NCBI GenBank assembly: GCA_963665815.1
Contig: OY762463.1
Span: 3,360,001-3,424,000, forward strand
Reading direction: 5' to 3'
Source: Candidatus Cloacimonadales bacterium
GTDB lineage: Bacteria > Cloacimonadota > Cloacimonadia > Cloacimonadales > JAIOQZ01
Length of the DNA stretch: 64,000 nt
Numbering within the stretch: position 1 is the first letter of the stretch; every line of letters starts with the position of its first letter. The translations under genes and the position numbers were made by a program. The notes below the pieces were generated by a model. That model ran no database searches. It worked only from the letters and a program-made list of their open reading frames with translations, and was not told the origin of the DNA. Below, piece after piece: positions 36,361-45,913 of the stretch.

Positions 36361-38877
36361 ATGGATTATAATAATAAACTGTCAGATTTTCTGATGTCAC
36401 TCAAAAACGAAATGAGCGGAGAACTGATATTCCGCAATATTGCAGGTCAGGATGCTGTCTTTGATGCAATCCCCCAACGGGTCGATCTGTCAATCCGGAG
36501 TTTTCTTGCAGCCAATGGTATAAGCAAACTGTTCAAGCACCAGTCAGATGCTCTAAATGCTGTTTTTCGCAGAGAAAACGTAGTTATCACTACAGGTGTG
36601 TCCAGCGGGAAATCGCTCTGTTATCAGGTTCCTGTCGTTCAGTCGATTTTGGATGATCACGAGTCATCTTCACTTTTTCTCTACCCTACAAAAGCATTGT
36701 CTCGTGATCAGCTTAAACAGATGAACAATCTTTTCCCGAATGACAACAACAGGATGTTCAAGGCTTTTGTATATGATGGTGATACTCCGGCTGATAAAAG
36801 AAAGCACATTCGGAATCATGCAAATATCGTAGTGACTAATCCTGACATGCTGCACATGAGTATATTACCACATCATACAACCTGGGAGAAATTCTTTTCC
36901 GGTCTGCGCTATGTCGTCATTGATGAAATCCATACCTACAGAGGTGTTTTCGGGTCTCATTTCATTAATGTTATGAGACGCCTCCACAGAATTATGAAGT
37001 TTTACGGAGCATCACCGCAATATATTATGACATCTGCCACAATTGCCAATGCTCGGGAAACTGCAGAGAAAATATCAGGACAGAAAGTTACTCTGATTGA
37101 TCAGGATTACTCCGCAAAAGGCAGCAGATACTTCATTTATTATAATCCACCCATAGTAAACGAAGAGCTGGGCATTCGTAAAAGCTCCCTGCTCGAAGCT
37201 GAGGAAATAGGCTATAAGCTGATTAGAAATGATCTTCAGTCTATCATATTTGCCCAGACAAGAAAGAGTGTTGAATTGATAGTCAACTATCTGCTTCGTC
37301 ATGAGGATGTCTCAGAAAAAGATGTGCGTGGCTACCGTTCAGGCTATCTGCCGGGATTCCGTCGAGAGATTGAGCAGGAATTACAGCAGGGAAATGCTAA
37401 ATGTGTCGTTGCAACCAATGCTCTTGAGCTGGGAATTGATATCGGATCTCTGGATGTGTCCGTTATAAGCGGTTACCCCGGAACTATAGCCTCTCTATGG
37501 CAGCAGGCAGGCAGAGCAGGCAGATCCGGTAAAGAGTCTGTGAACATATATTTGACAAGTGCCAGTCCGTTGGATCAGTATCTGTATAGTCATCCGGAAT
37601 ACATTTTCGACAGAGAGTCCGAGAAAGCCATAACGAATCCTGATCACCTCCTTATACTGTTCAATCACCTGCAATGTGCTGTGTTTGAACTGCCTTTCAA
37701 GAATGACGAGTATTTCGGAAATCTTTCACCTGAAGAGATAATTGACATGTGGGAAGTACTGAAAGAAGAACGCAAAGTTTTCGAGGACAGAGATAGCTAT
37801 TACTGGACTGCCGGAGGGTATCCTCCTGAACTGATCAGTCTGCGCAATATCGATTCAGGATTGATAAAACTCATCAATGATGCTCCTCAGAGAACAATCA
37901 TAGGATATACTGACCGACACAGTTCATACTGGCTACTTCATCCTAAAGCTATATATATACATGACGGTACATCTTACATCGTGAAAGATCTGAATCTGGA
38001 AGAAAAATACGCTCTGCTTCAGGAAGCGGAAATGGATTATTTTACTCAGGCACAGATGAAAACAGAGTTTGATATAGAATCAACAGATAACGCCAAAGAA
38101 TATAAAGGATTTACAATTGAAAAAGGTGAATTGATTGTTCGCAGCAGAGTTATAGGATTTCAGGCGAAAAAGTGGTACACTCACGAAATTGTGGGACAGG
38201 AAGAACTGGAAATGCCTGAGCATGCTCTGGATACATATGGATGCTGGATAAAACTGTCTGCGGATTTTGTGGAATCCCTGAGACAAAGCGACTCCTGGAG
38301 TAACAACCGGAATAACTATGGGGCTGACTGGAATTTGATAAAGGAAGCAGTCAGACGCAGAGACCATTACAGTTGTCGTAATTGTGGAAAACTTGAGGAC
38401 GGAGCAAACCATGATGTACACCACATAAAACCGTTCCGGTTCTTTGATTCTGCCAGAGAAGCGAATGCTATGGAAAACCTGATTACCCTGTGTAAAAGCT
38501 GTCATCATCAGGCAGAGAGTCAGGTTAGAGTTGTTTCCGGTCTCGATGGAGTCAGACATCTGCTCCAGAATATGAGTCCGCTTAAGCTTATGTGCGATAA
38601 TACAGATATAAGAGTGTTTGCAGAAAGTGCAAGTTCACTTAATGCACAGCTCCCGGCTATTGTCTTTTACGATGCAATTTCGGGAGGGATTGGACTGAGT
38701 GAAGAAGTTTATAAAGAGTTTTTCAGTATTCTGAGAAAGTCACTTGAAGTCCTGAAAAGCTGTCAATGCGACTCTGGTTGTCCATCCTGTATAGGACCTT
38801 CCGCAAGTAAGGACTCTAAGAAATACTCAGCAATAATTATTAGCAAACTGCTGAAGGTACACAATGAAAAAGCTTAA
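36361..38877 (+). CDS. mrfA: MrfA/Hrq1/SftH-type DEAH helicase with DUF1998 and an inserted HNH domain
   Basis: TGVSSGKSL, YPTKAL, TNPDMLH, DEIH, SAT, ATNALELGIDIG, QQAGRAGR, HLQCA...CQCDSGCPSC. HNH insert CRNC...HDVHHI...NLITLCKSCH. Confidence 0.88.
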   Translation: MDYNNKLSDFLMSLKNEMSGELIFRNIAGQDAVFDAIPQRVDLSIRSFLAANGISKLFKHQSDALNAVFRRENVVITTGVSSGKSLCYQVPVVQSILDDHESSSLFLYPTKALSRDQLKQMNNLFPNDNNRMFKAFVYDGDTPADKRKHIRNHANIVVTNPDMLHMSILPHHTTWEKFFSGLRYVVIDEIHTYRGVFGSHFINVMRRLHRIMKFYGASPQYIMTSATIANARETAEKISGQKVTLIDQDYSAKGSRYFIYYNPPIVNEELGIRKSSLLEAEEIGYKLIRNDLQSIIFAQTRKSVELIVNYLLRHEDVSEKDVRGYRSGYLPGFRREIEQELQQGNAKCVVATNALELGIDIGSLDVSVISGYPGTIASLWQQAGRAGRSGKESVNIYLTSASPLDQYLYSHPEYIFDRESEKAITNPDHLLILFNHLQCAVFELPFKNDEYFGNLSPEEIIDMWEVLKEERKVFEDRDSYYWTAGGYPPELISLRNIDSGLIKLINDAPQRTIIGYTDRHSSYWLLHPKAIYIHDGTSYIVKDLNLEEKYALLQEAEMDYFTQAQMKTEFDIESTDNAKEYKGFTIEKGELIVRSRVIGFQAKKWYTHEIVGQEELEMPEHALDTYGCWIKLSADFVESLRQSDSWSNNRNNYGADWNLIKEAVRRRDHYSCRNCGKLEDGANHDVHHIKPFRFFDSAREANAMENLITLCKSCHHQAESQVRVVSGLDGVRHLLQNMSPLKLMCDNTDIRVFAESASSLNAQLPAIVFYDAISGGIGLSEEVYKEFFSILRKSLEVLKSCQCDSGCPSCIGPSASKDSKKYSAIIISKLLKVHNEKA

Positions 38878-40054
38878 AGCAAAACTGAAGTCACTTGGTG
38901 CAGAGTTAAAAAAAGAGGATTCTGCTGTTGAAGAAGTTTTAGAGACTGAATCCGAGTCTTATATTGAAACTCCTTATGGAAAAGTACGCTGCAAAAAGAC
39001 AATTCATGATATGAATCTACAATTTTCGAGTGATATTTCGCAAGGGATAAGAAGTGTAAGTAAATATTGCAGAGTTCCACAAGCACTGGCATCAAATCCA
39101 TTCAATTTTGTGTTCATTGATCTGGAGACAACAGGACTTTCAGGTGGAGCAGGGACTATACCATTTCTGACAGGAGCAGGAGTCCTTAAAAATGGCAAAT
39201 TTGAGCTGTATCAGTATTTTCTTGAGTCACCATCTCAGGAGAAAGCAGGTCTGCATCTTGTAAAAGATATGATAAAAGATAAGTCGATTGTTGTCTCATT
39301 CAATGGAAAGAGCTTTGATATCCCGCTTCTGAAGAGTCGTTTTGTACTCCATTTCAGAGAACATCCATTTGACGAAAAGTATAATCTTGATCTTCTGCAT
39401 ATTTTCCGAAGGCTCTATAAAAACCGGTTCGAGAATTGTTCTCTGCAATACCTTGAATACCGCATACTGAAGCTATTCAGAACCTCATCTGACATAGAAG
39501 GTTATCTCATACCGGAGATGTATACACAGTATCTGCATGACAGAGATGAGGACTTTGTAGAAAGTGTGCTGTATCATAATGAAGTGGATATTACCTCCAT
39601 GGTAAGTCTACTTGATTTTCTGGTGAAATACCTGTCTGAGCCGTGCTGTGAAGATTATGAGGATTTAACCGATCCATTAGCTGTATGCAGATTCTTTGAG
39701 TTCATTGAAGATACTGAATGTGCAGAGAATATGTATTCAAGCTATAAAGAGAATCCGTTATGTACTAATGATGAGAAATTTCAGTGGCACTATTCGATTA
39801 TGCTGAAAAAGTCTAAACGAGTTAATGAGGCTGTGGAAGTCTGGGAAAAACTGACGGAATCCAGCATAGATGCGTGTTGCGAACTGGCAAAGCACTATGA
39901 ACACCGGATGAAGAACTTCGATAAGGCTATTCAGTATACATATTCGGCATTTGATCTGGCATTGAGTCAGGGGAAATCTGTCACAGTCCTGAAGGCAATC
40001 CAGACCAGAATGCAAAGACTTGAGCAAAAATTGAAAAGGGTGAGAAACGGATAA
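38864..40054 (+). CDS. mrfB: MrfB/YprB-type RNase H-like (DEDD) exonuclease with C-terminal TPR
   Basis: IDLETTGLSGGAGT, SFNGKSFD, DLLH..RR, YHNEVD, LAKHYEHR. Overlaps the helicase stop. Confidence 0.85.
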   Translation: MKKLKAKLKSLGAELKKEDSAVEEVLETESESYIETPYGKVRCKKTIHDMNLQFSSDISQGIRSVSKYCRVPQALASNPFNFVFIDLETTGLSGGAGTIPFLTGAGVLKNGKFELYQYFLESPSQEKAGLHLVKDMIKDKSIVVSFNGKSFDIPLLKSRFVLHFREHPFDEKYNLDLLHIFRRLYKNRFENCSLQYLEYRILKLFRTSSDIEGYLIPEMYTQYLHDRDEDFVESVLYHNEVDITSMVSLLDFLVKYLSEPCCEDYEDLTDPLAVCRFFEFIEDTECAENMYSSYKENPLCTNDEKFQWHYSIMLKKSKRVNEAVEVWEKLTESSIDACCELAKHYEHRMKNFDKAIQYTYSAFDLALSQGKSVTVLKAIQTRMQRLEQKLKRVRNG

Positions 40055-40351
40055 AATCCATATTAACCTTTGTAATACGAATAACAGGGATTCCTGTTAC
40101 CTTAGAAGAGATCAGCGAAATCATCCTCGTTTAAGGTTAGTTTAAAATGTACTTATTTTTTATCTCAGAGCACAATGACTGAGCCTATACTAAATCGACA
40201 ATGTTGATATAATCCTGAATAAGAATCAAACATATGTATGCCTTTAAGTGTCAAGAACCAGATCAAATCCATATCTTTTATCAGCAATATTTCCGTAAAT
40301 AAAACTTGCAGTTCAGTTAATATTTTGATCATATTGGTTTATGAGGCAAAA

Positions 40352-41716
40352 ATGAATAGAAATTATAAATATCACGAGGCAACAATAAGTATCTGCCCGG
40401 AGTGCAATAAAAGAGTCCCTGCAAAGATAATTTTCAGAGATAACAAAGTATATCTGAAGAAACACTGCGAGGAACACGGGATAACAGAAGAACTCTTCGA
40501 AGAGGATATTGAGTATTATCTGAATAAAAGGAAGTTCGATAAACCCGGTACTGTCTCAGAGATTCAGACTGAGACAAATAGAGGCTGTCCCTGGGATTGC
40601 GGACTGTGCCCTGAGCACGATCAGCATACCTGCATTGGTTTGGTGGAGATAACAGAAAACTGTGATCTGAATTGTCCGGTTTGTTATGCTAAGAGTGATT
40701 CAGGTAGTTTCATGTCATTGGATAGAATCAGTAAAATGATGGATTTCTTTGTGCAGAGTGAAGGTGGAGAAGCTGAGATTCTGCAGATCAGCGGGGGAGA
40801 ACCTACAACCCATCCGGATATTATCAAAATCATAGAGCTGGCTCGCAAGAAGAATATACGCTATGTGATGCTTAATACAAACGGACTGCGCATTGCTGAT
40901 GATCTTGAGTTTGTCTCAGATCTCAGCAAATTCGAAGGAGGATTTGAAGTGTATCTCCAGTTTGATGGTTTTGATCCTGAAATATACCGAACTTTACGTG
41001 GCAGAGATATTCTGGAACAAAAACTGAAAGCTGTGAAAGTGCTGACTATGTTCAAAATTCCCGTAACGCTTGTGGTAACTGTTCAGAAAGGGTTAAATGA
41101 TCACCAACTTGGTAAAATCATTGAGTTCGGTATGGAAACCGAAGGAGTGCGTGGAGTTAATCTTCAGCCTGTAGCATATTTTGGCAGATTTAACAAAGAG
41201 GCAACATCTGACAGGATTACTCTGTCCGGAGTGATTCACAGTATTGAGAACCAGCTTCCGGATGTATTTCAAAAGGGTGATATAGTGCCGCTTCCCTGCA
41301 ATGTTGAACGGGTAGGTGTGACATATCTCAGCAAAGTAAAAGGTAAGTTTGTACCTGTTACCAGAAACGTGAAGATAGAAGACTATCTACCGCTTATAGA
41401 TAACACCTTTGCATTTGATGCGGACAGAATCATAAAGAAGAGGGAAAAAGAATCTGTGACTTCAATTGAAGGAACCTGCAGTTGTATGAACTTCCTGAAA
41501 GATATGAAGTCAATTATTCCTGTAAGTTTTGCATTCAAGTCAAAGAAAGAAAAGCTCAAGTATATTAATAACAATACATTCCGAATAAGTGTGACCTCTT
41601 TTGTAGATAAATACAATTTTGATCTGAAATCTATGCAGAAAGAATGCGTTCATATATTAACGGAAGATTTAAGAAGAATTCCATTTTCTGCGTATAACAT
41701 GTTTTACAGGGATTAA
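40352..41716 (+). CDS. Radical SAM enzyme of the MJ0619/tetraether synthase (Tes, GDGT-MAS)-like family
   Basis: N-terminal CPEC...CEEH, then GCPWDCGLC.EH.QHTC, radical SAM CDLNCPVC, SGGEPT.HP, NTNG, YLQFDG, ECVH...IPFSAYN. Start placed at the ATG after GAGG. Confidence 0.85.
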   Translation: MNRNYKYHEATISICPECNKRVPAKIIFRDNKVYLKKHCEEHGITEELFEEDIEYYLNKRKFDKPGTVSEIQTETNRGCPWDCGLCPEHDQHTCIGLVEITENCDLNCPVCYAKSDSGSFMSLDRISKMMDFFVQSEGGEAEILQISGGEPTTHPDIIKIIELARKKNIRYVMLNTNGLRIADDLEFVSDLSKFEGGFEVYLQFDGFDPEIYRTLRGRDILEQKLKAVKVLTMFKIPVTLVVTVQKGLNDHQLGKIIEFGMETEGVRGVNLQPVAYFGRFNKEATSDRITLSGVIHSIENQLPDVFQKGDIVPLPCNVERVGVTYLSKVKGKFVPVTRNVKIEDYLPLIDNTFAFDADRIIKKREKESVTSIEGTCSCMNFLKDMKSIIPVSFAFKSKKEKLKYINNNTFRISVTSFVDKYNFDLKSMQKECVHILTEDLRRIPFSAYNMFYRD

Positions 41717-41718
41717 GA

Positions 41719-42300
41719 ATGTTTTTCAGAATAGCAAATTTATCTGTTGGATTGAGCGTTATGGCACTCTCAATATCCATAATCTATAACTTTATGAACA
41801 GCAGAGAACAGAAGGTGAATAAGGAAAAGAAGAGCGTTGTCGAAACAGGATCGATGTCCGCTTTTGCAGTTGCCATGTATTTTATTCTGATGTTCGGCAT
41901 AGGCAGATACAAGATAGAGAACCCTCTGCTTAACGTATCCATTGCTGTGGGCATGCTGTTTGTGCATGCCGGTTGTGTTGCAAATATTGTTGGCAGATTG
42001 AATCTTGGCAAAAACTGGGGTAACCACATAAGGATATATGATGATCATTCTTTTTCCAGAAAGGGAATGTACCGAATTGTCAGGCACCCGTTATATTCAT
42101 CGATAATCCTGATGTTCTTTGGTGCAGGCTTGATCTACTCTAACTATCTGTGTTTTTTAGCTACCACAGTAATTTTTATCCCTGCTATGTACTACAGGGC
42201 TAAACAGGAAGAAAATTTATTGAAAGAGAAGTTTTCTGAATACAGGCTGTATCAGAAAGAAGTTGGAATGCTGTTCCCAAAGGTAAGATTATGGAAATAA
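41719..42300 (+). CDS. Isoprenylcysteine carboxyl methyltransferase (ICMT/PEMT) family membrane protein
   Basis: LGKNW...H....GMYRIVRHPLY and R...EE..L...F..Y..Y...V..LFP motifs. Confidence 0.88.
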   Translation: MFFRIANLSVGLSVMALSISIIYNFMNSREQKVNKEKKSVVETGSMSAFAVAMYFILMFGIGRYKIENPLLNVSIAVGMLFVHAGCVANIVGRLNLGKNWGNHIRIYDDHSFSRKGMYRIVRHPLYSSIILMFFGAGLIYSNYLCFLATTVIFIPAMYYRAKQEENLLKEKFSEYRLYQKEVGMLFPKVRLWK

Positions 42301-42713
42301 ACAAGTATGCTTTAAAATTCTGCAAATTCGGTGTAGCTATAATGCTCTGGTTAGCTTTTATCCTGAAGGTGAAACTGTTAATAAGTGTCGTGTTCGTTAT
42401 TTTTGTGCTTTCAGCTTTGCTGAAGATTAGCAGAGCTCCTATGATTCTGCTGTATAATTACACTGTTGGTTTACTTATAAAATCACCGAAAGTTATAGTC
42501 AATGCTGAGGCAATGAGATTTGTTCATACTCTTGCATCATGTTTCAGCGGGATATGTCTTCTACTTGTCAATTTGAACTTGCGTTTTGCCTGGAGTGTTG
42601 TGTTGATTTTTGCCATCATGAAGACTGTCAGTTCACTGGGATTTTGTCCGGGAGAAAAGATTTACTCCTGTGTAAAAGGTGGTTGCTGCTCTGTAAGGAA
42701 ATCGGATGATTGA
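42291..42713 (+). CDS. DUF4395-like membrane protein
   Basis: Four hydrophobic segments, A.RF, GFCPGEKIY (GFCxGxxxY), Cys-rich tail. Confidence 0.65.
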   Translation: MEINKYALKFCKFGVAIMLWLAFILKVKLLISVVFVIFVLSALLKISRAPMILLYNYTVGLLIKSPKVIVNAEAMRFVHTLASCFSGICLLLVNLNLRFAWSVVLIFAIMKTVSSLGFCPGEKIYSCVKGGCCSVRKSDD

Positions 42714-43479
42714 CAGCCACAACCATCCTGAAAACTGGGGAATAAAACCTTATCTGCTTGAAATCGGTAAATTCAGGCTGGGCTCTTATGAGGTGTTTGT
42801 TTCACTGGGCATAATTGTCGGATTTATTGTATACAAGCATCTTTCTGCACAAGACAAGAAGATGAGCGATAACTCTTTTATTGTGCTGATTGCAGCGTTT
42901 ATTGGAGGAGTACTGGGAGCAAAACTACCCATCTGGATTATGCATTTCCGGGAGATAGTTCAGGCATTACCGGATATAAGACCAATTCTGGCAGGCAGGA
43001 CTATTACCGGAGGATTGGTTGGCGGAACTCTCGCAGTAATTTTTACAAAACGCAAACTGGGGATTAAGGAGAAGAAAGGCAATTTCTTTGCTCCGGCTAT
43101 AGCAATCGGTGTGGCAATAGGGAGAGTGGGCTGTCTTTTACGAGGCTGCTGCTATGGTCATGAGACATGTCTTCCTTGGGGAATTGAGCTTGGTGATGGT
43201 GTTATGCGTCATCCAACCCAGATTTATGAGATTATCTTTATGCTGATAATGTTTGCAGTACTGATGAAGCTTCGTAAGAAAGCAAAACCCGGATTTCTTT
43301 TCTATCTGCTTATGACCTCATATTTCTCATTCAGATTTATTGAGGAATATCTGCGGGAGAGTGTCTACTATTACGGTTTCACATTATTCCAGTATATATC
43401 TGTCGGAGCATTGCTGTTTATTAATGTAAAGTATATTCTTGAAAAGAAGAGGAGAGAGTGTGTCAAAGAAAATGAGTGA
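42706..43479 (+). CDS. Prolipoprotein diacylglyceryl transferase (Lgt) family paralog
   Basis: GGLVGG, GRVGCLLRGCCYG, PWG, RHPTQIYE, YFSFRFIEEYLR. Confidence 0.88.
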   Translation: MIDSHNHPENWGIKPYLLEIGKFRLGSYEVFVSLGIIVGFIVYKHLSAQDKKMSDNSFIVLIAAFIGGVLGAKLPIWIMHFREIVQALPDIRPILAGRTITGGLVGGTLAVIFTKRKLGIKEKKGNFFAPAIAIGVAIGRVGCLLRGCCYGHETCLPWGIELGDGVMRHPTQIYEIIFMLIMFAVLMKLRKKAKPGFLFYLLMTSYFSFRFIEEYLRESVYYYGFTLFQYISVGALLFINVKYILEKKRRECVKENE

Positions 43480-43711
43480 AGGCAAAGAGTTCAAGATTGG
43501 GTCATTCATAGGAATTATGGCACTATTTATCATGATGATGGTTTCAATATCAGGTTTTCTGATATGGTTAATATTATATGATATCGTTCTGATATTTGTC
43601 GGACTTCTGATCTATAAATCCGGAAAGATGAAGATGTTTTTTTCATATTGCCTGTTCGTCATACCGGGATTTATTTTCCACGGATCATGCTTCGGCGGAG
43701 TGAATTTTTAG
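43460..43711 (+). CDS. Small 3-TM protein with C-terminal GSC motif (paralog 1)
   Basis: GAGGAG RBS before the GTG at 43460. Ends ...FIFHGSCFGGVNF. Confidence 0.7.
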   Translation: MSKKMSEGKEFKIGSFIGIMALFIMMMVSISGFLIWLILYDIVLIFVGLLIYKSGKMKMFFSYCLFVIPGFIFHGSCFGGVNF

Positions 43712-43761
43712 TGAATTGATTTTACAATAACTGATTATAAAATGTATAAGGAGAAAATATT

Positions 43762-44046
43762 ATGAACTCAAAAAGAAAACAGTTTTTTAAGGGTCTACTT
43801 ATTGGATTGCTGTTATTGATAACTTTTTTTGTTATATTCATAATGTTTGGTTTTCCAAATGGCTTTGATGATGGTTCCGCTTCCTATCCACTTATAATTA
43901 TTATGGGCTTAGTTTATGCATCATTATGTGTATTCTTCTGGCTTCGAGGAAAAAATCGTGCGCTGTTTTATGGATTTATTTCAGCAGTTGCTGTGTTTGC
44001 TTTGATTTTTGGAGCTTGTACTTTCACCTGGATATACACATTGTAG
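43762..44046 (+). CDS. Small 3-TM protein with C-terminal GAC motif (paralog 2)
   Basis: AAGGAG RBS. Ends ...ALIFGACTFTWIYTL. Confidence 0.8.
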   Translation: MNSKRKQFFKGLLIGLLLLITFFVIFIMFGFPNGFDDGSASYPLIIIMGLVYASLCVFFWLRGKNRALFYGFISAVAVFALIFGACTFTWIYTL

Positions 44047-44070
44047 GATTAAGAACCCAAAGGAGTTTAT

Positions 44071-44394
44071 ATGGATAAACAACAGGATTTTTCTTTTAAA
44101 GAAAACAAAACCGACAGAAAATTCAAAGATGTCATTATTGGTGCATTAATCGGAGTTGTGCTGATTGCATTAATATTTATCATTGCAATACCGCAAACAT
44201 ACTCATCAGTAGTATCAAATGTTTTTTTTGCATACACAATTTATGCTTTAGCAATATTAGTAGTTCTGGGTATTGTTTATATTAGTATTAGAAAGAAGCA
44301 GTATTTTTTGCTTTTAGGTTTGATACTAAGTCCATTACTAGCTCTGATTCTGGTAGGTGCATGTTTTGTTGCTGTCATGGGTAGTGCGGGATAA
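44071..44394 (+). CDS. Small 3-TM protein with C-terminal GAC motif (paralog 3)
   Basis: AAGGAG RBS. Ends ...LILVGACFVAVMGSAG. Confidence 0.8.
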   Translation: MDKQQDFSFKENKTDRKFKDVIIGALIGVVLIALIFIIAIPQTYSSVVSNVFFAYTIYALAILVVLGIVYISIRKKQYFLLLGLILSPLLALILVGACFVAVMGSAG

Positions 44395-44434
44395 ATAGTG
44401 TTGAATATTGTAATCTCAGTTGTAGTATGATACA

Positions 44435-45913
44435 CTAAACAAGATTATCAGTATCTTCTTTTAATTTCCTTCTGTTGACCTCCGGGTAAAGCTTGGCTGC
44501 ACATTCCGGGCAGATACCATGTGAAAACTGAACATCAGGCAGTCTTTCAGTGATGTAATCTGCAGGTTTCATCCATGGTTTGCCATCTTTGCTTTTGTCT
44601 TTGATAGAGTGGCAGCTTGCACACATTGTTATGAGGTTTCCTAATGCGTGACTTTGCTGTATGTTTGTTCTCATTATTTCCAGAAATTCCTTCTGTCTTG
44701 TTATATCCCGAATAATACAAAAATATGCTTTGAGACCATTAAAGTCCCCAACGTTTTCACTGATATGAGTAATAATTATACTGCCGTCTTTTTTTCTTAA
44801 CTCTACTTCATATTGATAGTTTAAATTGCCTGATCTTTCATTCTCCTCAATAATCTTTCGCACCTTTTCTTTTTCCTTTTCAGGAAGGAATTTCTTTCCG
44901 TCAATTTTTAACAAATTATCTACTGAATATCCCAATAATATAGCTGATGCATCATTTGCAAATATAAATTTCCCGTTCTGTCTGATAACTATAGCTTCAT
45001 TGGATCTTTCCATCATCCATCTATATTTCTTTTCCTGTTCAAAAGTCCTTTTCATATACATGAATTTGTCTCTTTTGTAAATAGTTGAAACAATGAACAG
45101 GATCAACAGGATTAACAGCGATATTGTTATGATCTGCTCTTTCAGAAAAATTTGATAATCAGAGAACATATTTTTCTCGGAAGAAGAGAATTTCAGATAT
45201 ATTTTTGAATGTTCTGATTTTATTAAATACGATACCAGACCGTTATTAAGGGACAAAAAGCTGCCTATATTATTATGTTTATTTAAATCAGATAATTTAA
45301 GTATTTCAAGTTGAACTGTTGGTTCTGATATTTCTTTAAGTACTTTTTCATTATTGTAATAAATGACATCATGTCCGAGAAGTTCTCCATTTTTCTTTAT
45401 TGGACTGATTACATACATAATAGAAAGCTTATCAGTATTGAAATAGTACAATGTCGTAGATGTACAACAGGTATCAACTTTTGCCGGATGTAACATGTAT
45501 ATGTCTTTGTCACCTGTTTCTACAAGAACGTTGTTTTTAATCTCTCGCCGGGCATAAACAAAGCATTCCAGGGCTTCAACTCCTTCTCTATATTTAGGGA
45601 ATGTATAATCTCTAAGTTGTTCAAAACTGAGTTCACCAAGGTAAAAATCAGCTATTTTATTCCTGATCATGGATCTGCTGCTCATACTCCTGGATCCCTG
45701 GATATACTGAGATACTGTATTGTCGAAAATAACAGCTTTTGTTTTCAGCTTTGAAATATACTCTTTTATTATCTGTTCCCTGATAACCTCTTGAGATGGT
45801 TTAAAAAGAAACAGGTAGTAAGTCATGAAAATCATACCGGATAAAATAATGATAATCAAAGCTATAATGTATTTATTGGGTCTCAAATCGTAGAAATCTG
45901 AAAAAAAACTCAT
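44435..45913 (-). CDS. Membrane sensor: TM, extracytoplasmic domain, TM, PAS, then a CxxC...SHGICxxC domain
   Basis: Two TM segments, PAS (..RKKDGS..IRDIT), terminal MCASCHSIK...W...FSHGICPEC. Confidence 0.8.
   Translation of the reverse strand: MSFFSDFYDLRPNKYIIALIIIILSGMIFMTYYLFLFKPSQEVIREQIIKEYISKLKTKAVIFDNTVSQYIQGSRSMSSRSMIRNKIADFYLGELSFEQLRDYTFPKYREGVEALECFVYARREIKNNVLVETGDKDIYMLHPAKVDTCCTSTTLYYFNTDKLSIMYVISPIKKNGELLGHDVIYYNNEKVLKEISEPTVQLEILKLSDLNKHNNIGSFLSLNNGLVSYLIKSEHSKIYLKFSSSEKNMFSDYQIFLKEQIITISLLILLILFIVSTIYKRDKFMYMKRTFEQEKKYRWMMERSNEAIVIRQNGKFIFANDASAILLGYSVDNLLKIDGKKFLPEKEKEKVRKIIEENERSGNLNYQYEVELRKKDGSIIITHISENVGDFNGLKAYFCIIRDITRQKEFLEIMRTNIQQSHALGNLITMCASCHSIKDKSKDGKPWMKPADYITERLPDVQFSHGICPECAAKLYPEVNRRKLKEDTDNLV

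Follow-up and report, generated by a model that had tools for sequence, protein, structure and literature searches.

Among systems described to date, those close to the locus considered here include ones centered on the radical S-adenosylmethionine (SAM) enzyme Tes/GDGT-MAS (MJ0619; PDB 7TOL/7TOM) and on the lipoprotein enzyme Lgt. Passages of the structural work on GDGT-MAS describe a rubredoxin-like site (C9X2C12X20C33X2H36), an N-terminal cluster bound by C73, C77 and C80 together with a His, a radical SAM cluster, and a C-terminal cluster with a labile Met439; they also report E. coli phospholipids bound in the pocket, a lipid-sulfur intermediate carried by cluster sulfur via a carbon-sulfur bond, and complete conservation of Met439 and Tyr459 in 1000 archaeal homologs (PMC9433317). 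Bacterial and DPANN homologs of Tes are widely counted as candidate makers of branched tetraethers, a role that is putative in the relevant passages of those sources (PMC8941075, PMC13159169, PMC11868695). For E. coli Lgt, whose active site lies at the periplasmic face, the passages in question name R143 and R239, with E243 and R246, as essential for phosphatidylglycerol binding and catalysis, E151 as part of a donor-selecting site, and H103 of the HGGL motif as essential and as the proposed binder of the lipobox peptide (PMC4728403); the lipobox itself is given as [LVI][ASTVI][GAS]C after an N-terminal signal peptide (PMC12462473, in the part that treats it). Here we describe an operon in a 64,000-nucleotide stretch of a Candidatus Cloacimonadales bacterium genome (contig OY762463.1, positions 3,360,001 to 3,424,000, hereafter 'the window'), in which a relative of Tes stands together with an Lgt paralog and three small Cys-tailed membrane proteins, and which looks like an undescribed protein-lipidation system.

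No paper in the literature searched joins a Tes-like radical SAM enzyme with Lgt or with a lipobox, and DUF4395, a further family of the operon, appears there in unrelated contexts only. The initial annotation of this locus had likewise recognized no described pathway with this combination of genes, which agrees with that search, the TrsS-defining paper (Haft and Tolstoy 2025) lying outside its coverage and possibly describing a related neighborhood.

Conserved linkage of the Lgt paralog, radical SAM and small-protein genes

The operon comprises seven co-oriented genes at positions 40352-44394 of the window, all on the + strand. The initial annotation gave these genes and their junctions (in order, a 2-nt gap, overlaps of 10, 8 and 20 nt, the last for a GTG start at 43460, and gaps of 50 and 24 nt), which the open reading frame (ORF) list of the window reproduces exactly, and its family assignments of radical SAM, ICMT, DUF4395 and Lgt hold by Pfam. 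Its proposal of one system of five families stood in part only. We scanned one genome per species with two clade-typical peptide patterns, which gave at least 598 confirmed stretches, and examined the best 80, counting neighbors from tblastn and ORF maps; 60 of these loci have at least 1.5 kb upstream and at least 3.5 kb downstream of the radical SAM gene ('full-flank' loci). An Lgt-family gene adjoins the radical SAM gene in 71 of the 80 loci and in 59 of the 60 with full flanks, while a small, same-strand, Cys-tailed ORF lies within 1.5 kb of it in at least 60 of 80 (50 of 60 with full flanks), and both are near it in 59 of 80 (50 of 60). ICMT is present in 15 of the 60 full-flank loci and DUF4395 in 14. 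Across the 80 loci the tail rule matches 76 of the 521 small ORFs that share the strand of the core genes and lie no more than 1.5 kb away, versus 38 of 2906 elsewhere, an arrangement far beyond chance; most loci without a component end at contig edges, and some are misses of the tail rule. The linkage is conserved across phyla, and its core is a trio of Lgt paralog, radical SAM enzyme and small protein, with ICMT and DUF4395 as accessories of one clade plus one distant variant.

Three architectures can be distinguished. The cassette, in the order radical SAM-ICMT-DUF4395-Lgt-small, is found at loci with radical SAM identities of at least 49%, 17 of 18 of which have ICMT. The pair, Lgt-radical SAM-small or Lgt-small-radical SAM, belongs to a clade of ~41% identity from what the record titles give as Bacteroidota, Paenibacillus/Fictibacillus and Ktedonobacteria. 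The third is a distant variant in another genome of the phylum, G016, arranged as small-small-radical SAM-Lgt-ICMT with a radical SAM identity of 36%. The trio thus survives three gene orders and radical SAM identities of 36-96%, and its cultivable, non-pathogenic carriers include, going by record titles, Chitinophaga, Maribacter, Pedobacter, Paenibacillus glycanilyticus and Ktedonosporobacter rubrisoli. In a FastTree of 78 radical SAM sequences (3 of 81 were left out as fragments shorter than 400 aa) the cassettes with ICMT group in a single clade (support 0.992), whose sole member without ICMT is a truncated locus. Since ICMT is confined to that clade and one variant, methyl capping of the product, the role first proposed for the methyltransferase, cannot be a general step.

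In the same tree the radical SAM sequence of the window is sister to three sequences from archaeal metagenome-assembled genomes (MAGs). Homologs turned up in 3 of 41 relatives and, across the phylum, in 3 of 232 genomes, namely the source genome, one of the same genus, and G016; this patchy occurrence, together with nearest relatives in archaeal MAGs, suggests horizontal spread. Of 8000 sequences scored against the radical SAM protein, 6140 are relatives at E<=0.001; identity is 54-96% for the best 120, and the names among them include Woesearchaeota, Nanoarchaeota, Falkowbacteria, Moraniibacteriota, Ignavibacteria, Chlorobiales, Clostridia and Mangrovibacterium.

The four enzymes of the same-genus genome are 89-96% identical to those of the window, whereas the counterpart of small protein 1 is only 38% identical, from which we conclude that the small genes turn over fast; small protein 2 has two counterparts there, 82-83% identical. 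That locus (G001:C13, 2817-4483, minus strand) carries four intact Cys-tailed genes and a 104-aa copy without the Cys tail. In G016 (C165, 2753-7255) a rhomboid protease gene lies directly upstream of two Cys-tailed ORFs of 64-68 aa; as a conserved partner it was rejected, being beside this one variant locus only. Two further local arrangements were seen. In a Pacearchaeota MAG (L017, 9382-11579) six extra small hydrophobic ORFs of 79-158 aa separate the radical SAM and ICMT genes, four of them ending in KKYG or RKYG and the remaining two in K-rich tails, with neither a G-x-C tail nor a family match, and in two Ktedonobacteria loci (L030, 9568-10488; L031, 9525-10421) an ArsP-type, weakly SaoE-like permease follows the radical SAM gene.

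A family of small Cys-tailed membrane proteins

The three small membrane proteins of the window all end in a hydrophobic helix, then G-[SA]-C and 6-9 further residues. Small protein 1 (43460-43711, +) has 83 aa from its GTG start, with an alternative TTG start at 43439, and a tail of G-S-C plus 6 residues; small protein 2 (43762-44046, +; 94 aa) ends in G-A-C plus 9, and small protein 3 (44071-44394, +; 107 aa) in L-V-G-A-C plus 9. AGGAG-type ribosome-binding sites lie 6-9 nt upstream of the starts at 43460, 43762 and 44071. None of the three reaches a family cut-off in Pfam or NCBIfam, matches in the ESM Atlas are unnamed 'hypothetical protein' clusters only, and the family as a whole has no name in any of the three resources.

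The small proteins of the different loci, one to four at each, align as one family. A cassette-derived profile built from 14 members was searched against 1.84 billion representatives, with 621 clusters reaching E<=0.001 and 106 of them E<=1e-10; it matches small protein 1 at 3e-19, a value to be read with the fact that this protein is itself a training member, and detects small ORFs at the expected places in untrained loci (L013, L028, L030, L031, L035, L044-L046, L051 and others). The three Cys-tailed ORFs first noticed in the window are therefore a genuine set, part of a widespread family with an invariant Cys at a lipobox-like place. Among the best 150 of the 621 clusters, the proteins are 90-177 aa long, none is a fusion, 146 have three hydrophobic segments, and 148 have [GAS]-x-C within the last 22 residues. 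In these 148, position -2 is G in 146, position -1 is A (74), G (34), S (20) or T (9), position -3 is most often F (84) or V (27), and 5-19 residues (median 9) follow the Cys. Anchored on the Cys, the columns of highest information content read R(-21) R(-20) Y I x I G ... P(-7) L L x F G A up to C(0) and drop after it, the G and C columns being inflated because the matches were picked by the profile and the anchor by the motif.

Mean counts of K+R (4.64 at the N-terminus, 0.47 in loop 1, 3.42 in loop 2 and 0.29 in the tail) predict, by the positive-inside rule, a cytoplasmic N-terminus and loop 2, and put the Cys where the last helix emerges on the outer side. This helix resembles a lipoprotein signal peptide: a pair of arginines precedes a hydrophobic stretch of about 20 residues, after which come F/V-G-[A/G/S]-C and a short tail that is itself hydrophobic. 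In the source genome only the three cluster genes match the family. A general C-terminal sorting signal was also considered for that genome and rejected: a loose rule fits 79 of 18,774 ORFs, which apart from the cluster genes look chance-like, one of them longer than 140 aa. The small proteins are accordingly dedicated partners of the module.

A last helix like a signal peptide, a Cys predicted at the outer face, and a dedicated Lgt that keeps the lipid-handling residues with a change at the proposed peptide-binding His make enzyme and substrate the simplest reading. We hypothesize, at what we judge an even chance, that the trio is the core of a self-contained, horizontally spread membrane module in which the small-protein Cys is lipidated via the Lgt paralog and the radical SAM enzyme acts on lipid tails. 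The Lgt paralog would transfer, at the outer face of the cytoplasmic membrane, a diacylglyceryl-type lipid from phospholipid to the invariant Cys thiol, and the radical SAM enzyme, working on the cytoplasmic side, would modify the hydrocarbon tails of lipids in the manner of Tes, either making a special lipid donor or remodeling the attached lipid by C-C coupling of its tails. In the clade of the window, the ICMT/PEMT methyltransferase and DUF4395 may assist at the cytoplasmic face, the former probably in lipid head-group methylation and the latter probably as a metal or redox dock for the radical SAM enzyme.

The same tails could instead belong to a ribosomal lipopeptide, the second reading offered in the initial annotation, in which S-lipidation is followed by a signal peptidase II cut before the Cys and release of a lipidated peptide of 6-20 residues, the three-transmembrane part serving as leader. 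A conserved 'leader' with a variable post-Cys part would fit such a pathway, as would A, G or S at position -1 (128 of 148) and the tandem, fast-turnover copies, three in the window and four intact plus one tail-less in the same-genus genome. Against this, the module has no conserved gene for a transporter, a protease or immunity (the rhomboid is at a single variant locus), the tails are short, hydrophobic and compositionally simple, and Bacteroidota copies often have I, V or T at -1, so we regard release of a peptide as quite unlikely.

Enzymes of the module and the weighing of readings

The putative transferase of this lipidation is a divergent Lgt-family protein (42706-43479, +; 257 aa) that matches LGT (PF01790) at 2.4e-33 and 115.9 bits (cut-off 24.9). 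The initial annotation had left room for its being the sole housekeeping Lgt, which it is not: the 3.96-Mb, single-contig genome has two LGT matches, the other at C1:1211692-1212453 scoring 247.7 bits. No Lgt equivalog of NCBIfam is reached by the window copy (TIGR00544, 88.5 bits vs a cut-off of 118.9; NF000778, 113.6 vs 334). Its AlphaFold2 model (predicted local distance difference test, pLDDT, 79.1) has E. coli Lgt 5AZB as the sole PDB match at E<=0.001 (E 8.5e-07, TM 0.73/0.67), and has the seven-helix Lgt fold. A complex prediction for the paralog with small protein 3 scored 0.01, which is no evidence either way.

The window Lgt keeps the equivalents of R143, G154, E202, R239, E243 and R246, with T in place of H103. 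Among 86 radical SAM-linked Lgts, none departs from R143, G154, E202 or R239; position 243 holds E or D in 85 and position 246 holds K or R in all, while H103 is never His (V, M, L, T, I or A). The position of N146 is C in 82 of the 86; the linked Lgts of Ktedonobacteria (L030, L031) keep Asn there. At the signature positions N146 and E151 the window protein has C and C. The initial annotation had typed this Lgt by a 'GCCYG' motif, which is not special to the paralog. A motif-seeded metagenome scan gave 80 'GCCYG' Lgts, with a radical SAM gene on the stretch in 29, and where at least 3 kb was available to either side (25 Lgts), 10 had the gene and 15 did not; the same change at N146 and E151 is present in 11 of 11 unlinked full-flank Lgts. 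Three of three unlinked carriers tested (L109, L153, L157) directly follow lspA (Peptidase_A8) and score as ordinary Lgts, at 187-239 bits on the LGT model. 'GCCYG' was therefore ruled out as a mark of new function, the change not being diagnostic; it marks a broad Lgt subgroup, inside which the radical SAM-linked Lgts are a divergent branch (103.6-116 bits). As these three lspA-adjacent genes also indicate, not all housekeeping Lgts carry the PROSITE-type Lgt signature. Lgt-family genes also occur in contigs of MAGs labeled Woesearchaeota, Nanoarchaeota, Pacearchaeota and Methanosarcinales (L011, L012, L013, L017, L023, L026); no archaeal Lgt homologs had been identified so far according to the relevant passage of PMC12462473.

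The loss of H103, from a motif proposed to bind peptide, in all 86 linked Lgts would fit a module that made only lipid, the radical SAM and Lgt-like proteins producing or rearranging a membrane lipid (e.g. a tail-coupled, membrane-spanning glycerolipid) with the small proteins as structural or regulatory subunits. This is the default literature reading of bacterial Tes homologs, which the passages concerned treat as candidates for membrane-spanning lipids (PMC8941075, PMC11868695), and the ICMT family does include lipid methyltransferases (PEMT 3e-10, LmtA 6.8e-08 for the window protein). A pathway confined to lipid nevertheless fails to explain why, in 148 of 150 matches, G-x-C stands at the outer end of the final helix at a fixed distance of 20-21 residues from RR. 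The carriers, moreover, include Flavobacteriia, Chitinophagia and Paenibacillus, for which membrane-spanning lipids are, to our knowledge, not reported. Tes homologs were also not found in diabolic-acid producers, as stated in a passage of PMC13159169. We therefore consider it unlikely that the products are lipids alone, and keep lipidation of the small-protein Cys as the preferred reading.

The radical SAM enzyme itself (40352-41716, +; 454 aa) matches Radical_SAM (3.7e-22) and Zn_ribbon_HMPTM (6e-18) in Pfam and aligns end to end with GDGT-MAS 7TOL (E 1.1e-69). Its longest frame starts at 40238, with 454-aa homologs favoring 40352, and is open, without an in-frame TGA. In NCBIfam it reaches neither TrsS (NF045646, 361.4 bits vs a cut-off of 490) nor Tes (NF045702, 314.6 vs 450); TrsS is the best-scoring curated family for it and for the other clades examined (326.7-381.7 bits, all below 490). 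It is the only Tes-like radical SAM gene of the genome (361.5 bits, next match 38.9), and no above-cut-off TrsS was found in 232 genomes of the phylum. Of 14 control genomes, 3 pass the Tes model, each of them an archaeon known to have Tes; in the five cassette-bearing archaeal MAGs there is no further Tes-family match, and none lies above cut-off. In an archaea-labeled locus (L178, a 'Methanosarcinales' MAG; G232:C1:35703-37079) the match of the Tes model to the radical SAM gene of the cassette reads through one TGA, which is probably read-through of a stop rather than a selenocysteine extension, since the ORF ends at the usual C-terminus.

Invariant residues of a 24-sequence alignment, namely C15, C18, C39 and H42, C79, C83, C86 and H89/H92, and C104, C108 and C111, correspond to a rubredoxin-like CX2CX20CX2H, an N-terminal auxiliary CX3CX2C plus His, and the radical SAM CX3CX2C. 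By contrast, GDGT-MAS Cys438, Met439 and Tyr459 are V, T and I in the window enzyme, in a high-confidence block of the pairwise alignment with which the clade consensus agrees (the 7TOL chain index is native numbering + 20, derived from C9/C12). Judged from these scores and alignments, the enzyme is a relative of Tes and TrsS in neither curated family, with its third cluster site remodeled. Such remodeling could also mean that the enzyme acts on the small protein itself, for example by bonding a carbon of the lipid to the sulfur of the Cys or to some other residue, while the Lgt-like protein supplies or holds the lipid, and the carbon-sulfur bond to cluster sulfide of the GDGT-MAS intermediate, as passages of the structural report describe it, offers a precedent (PMC9433317). 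Yet the predicted topology puts the Cys on the opposite side from a cytoplasmic Fe-S enzyme, and no SPASM or peptide-maturase model comes near its cut-off (best 62.5 bits vs 400), so that direct action on the protein strikes us as very unlikely; action on lipid tails, with the Cys left to the Lgt paralog, is the assignment we retain.

The two accessory proteins are an ICMT/PEMT-family membrane methyltransferase (41719-42300, +; 193 aa) and a DUF4395 membrane protein with a Cys-rich C-terminal tail (42291-42713, +; 140 aa). The methyltransferase matches ICMT (PF04140) at 1.1e-10 (42.2 bits vs a cut-off of 24) and PEMT (PF04191), its closest structure is archaeal ICMT 4A2N (E 5.1e-15), it weakly matches lipid and thiol methyltransferase models, and it stays below the equivalog NF040696 (79.8 bits vs 160). 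DUF4395 (PF14340; 6.6e-12, 46.3 bits, above the cut-off of 24.5; no NCBIfam match) has invariant C119, C127, C132 and C133 and nearly invariant C11 and H79; its AlphaFold2 model is four-helix (pLDDT 88.7), none of 234 weak PDB rows matching the fold at E<=0.001, and the charge distribution places its Cys-rich tail probably in the cytoplasm. The ICMT protein of G016, with 356 aa, has a CPC...CPC...CVC tail at its end; an apparent ICMT-DUF4395 fusion is not supported there, hhalign of the DUF4395 profile against this long protein giving a probability of 0.5%.

The presence of an ICMT-family gene closest to 4A2N, recurring in the distant variant, would fit a bacterial analog of CAAX processing, as proposed in the initial annotation, in which the Cys is lipidated, the tail removed and the new C-terminal carboxyl methylated by ICMT. 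That proposal is disfavored by the spacing, the Cys being followed by 5-19 residues and never 3, and by the C-terminus, which is predicted outside while the sites of SAM-dependent ICMT enzymes face the cytoplasm. ICMT is in only 15 of the 60 full-flank loci and no protease is conserved; we consider CAAX-like processing extremely improbable.

Several observations nonetheless weigh against lipidation of the Cys by the Lgt paralog with a Tes-like partner. The tail motif is no canonical lipobox: the signal is the last helix, G at -2 is outside the rule, F stands at -3 in 84 of 148, and -1, which fits in 128 of 148, is often I, V or T in Bacteroidota. With H103 lost and E151 changed, the paralog could have lost protein lipidation or changed both substrates. 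The lipid-sulfur intermediate of GDGT-MAS is reported to sit on the C-terminal cluster, and Cys438, Met439 and Tyr459, at or near this cluster, are absent from the window enzyme, so its chemistry may not be Tes-like. With a cytoplasmic radical SAM enzyme and a Cys predicted outside, the steps may run in either order and may need lipid flipping, and 10 of the 60 full-flank loci lack a Cys-tailed ORF by the rule, at least 3 of them (L047, L078, L084) having look-alike tails.

The genes flanking the operon are unrelated to the module. Upstream, at 36361-40054 on the + strand, an 838-aa MrfA-type DEAD/Helicase_C protein with an HNH domain inserted ahead of the MrfA Zn-binding domain precedes a 396-aa RNase_H_2-type exonuclease, whose gene overlaps that of the helicase by 14 nt, and the two look like an MrfAB-like repair pair with an extra nuclease domain. 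Downstream, a PAS-domain membrane protein with paired cysteines near its C-terminus lies on the opposite strand (44435-45913, -), convergent with the operon; no association of it with the module was seen at other loci. An Rfam search of 39500-45000 gave no family at E<=0.1, and a promoter and terminator scan did no better than shuffles (13 vs 16.0±3.7 and 2 vs 2.6±1.5).

Significance and comparison with known systems

If the small proteins are indeed the acceptors, the lipoprotein pathway, known for decades, would gain a second, dedicated branch, and Lgt-family genes have been seen in archaea-labeled MAGs. It is tempting to go further and propose a new class of protein lipidation, which we put forward as a tentative possibility, less likely than not: a dedicated Lgt would S-lipidate small, ribosomally made membrane proteins at a C-terminal helix resembling a signal peptide, and the Tes-like radical SAM enzyme would couple the tails by C-C bonds into a macrocyclic or membrane-spanning protein-bound lipid. 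Such a system would exist in hundreds of bacterial species, candidate-phyla bacteria and DPANN archaea, would contain the first Lgt-family enzymes in archaeal genomes, and would reassign a large share of the 'bacterial Tes homologs' now read as branched tetraether markers. Branched tetraether lipids underlie paleoclimate proxies, and a large cross-phylum clade of the bacterial and DPANN Tes homologs is tied to an Lgt paralog and Cys-tailed mini-proteins, which points to protein-linked lipid chemistry with a testable substrate.

The window enzyme shares with Tes/GDGT-MAS full-length homology, the N-terminal ribbon, the auxiliary cluster motif and the radical SAM motif, and differs from it in scoring below the Tes cut-off, in the V, T and I at Cys438, Met439 and Tyr459, and in its linkage to an Lgt paralog and Cys-tailed proteins. 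TrsS, a radical SAM (seleno)protein (NF045646) attributed in a passage of PMC13188914 to Haft and Tolstoy 2025, is the top curated family for the enzyme, which nevertheless falls short of 490 bits in a frame without TGA. No NCBIfam partner model matches the Lgt paralog, ICMT, DUF4395 or the small proteins, which argues that the module is not curated with TrsS. Mss, a bacterial membrane-spanning lipid synthase, resembles the proposed module in that a radical SAM enzyme is proposed or shown to couple lipid tails in bacteria; it is described as only remotely related to Tes, and the passages concerned mention no linkage to Lgt or small proteins (PMC13159169, PMC13459092). With ICMT/CAAX processing the module has in common an ICMT-family gene beside Cys-tailed proteins, and differs in spacing, topology and the patchy presence of ICMT.

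A parallel in acceptor and transferase is the Lgt-LspA-Lnt pathway, which likewise has the Lgt fold, with its lipid-binding and catalytic residues, and an acceptor in which a basic stretch, a hydrophobic span and small residues precede an outer-face Cys. In the module, by contrast, the signal is the last helix of a polytopic protein of 60-170 aa, with 5-19 residues after the Cys and Gly at -2, H103 is replaced, and the predicted transferase is a dedicated paralog beside a separate housekeeping Lgt.

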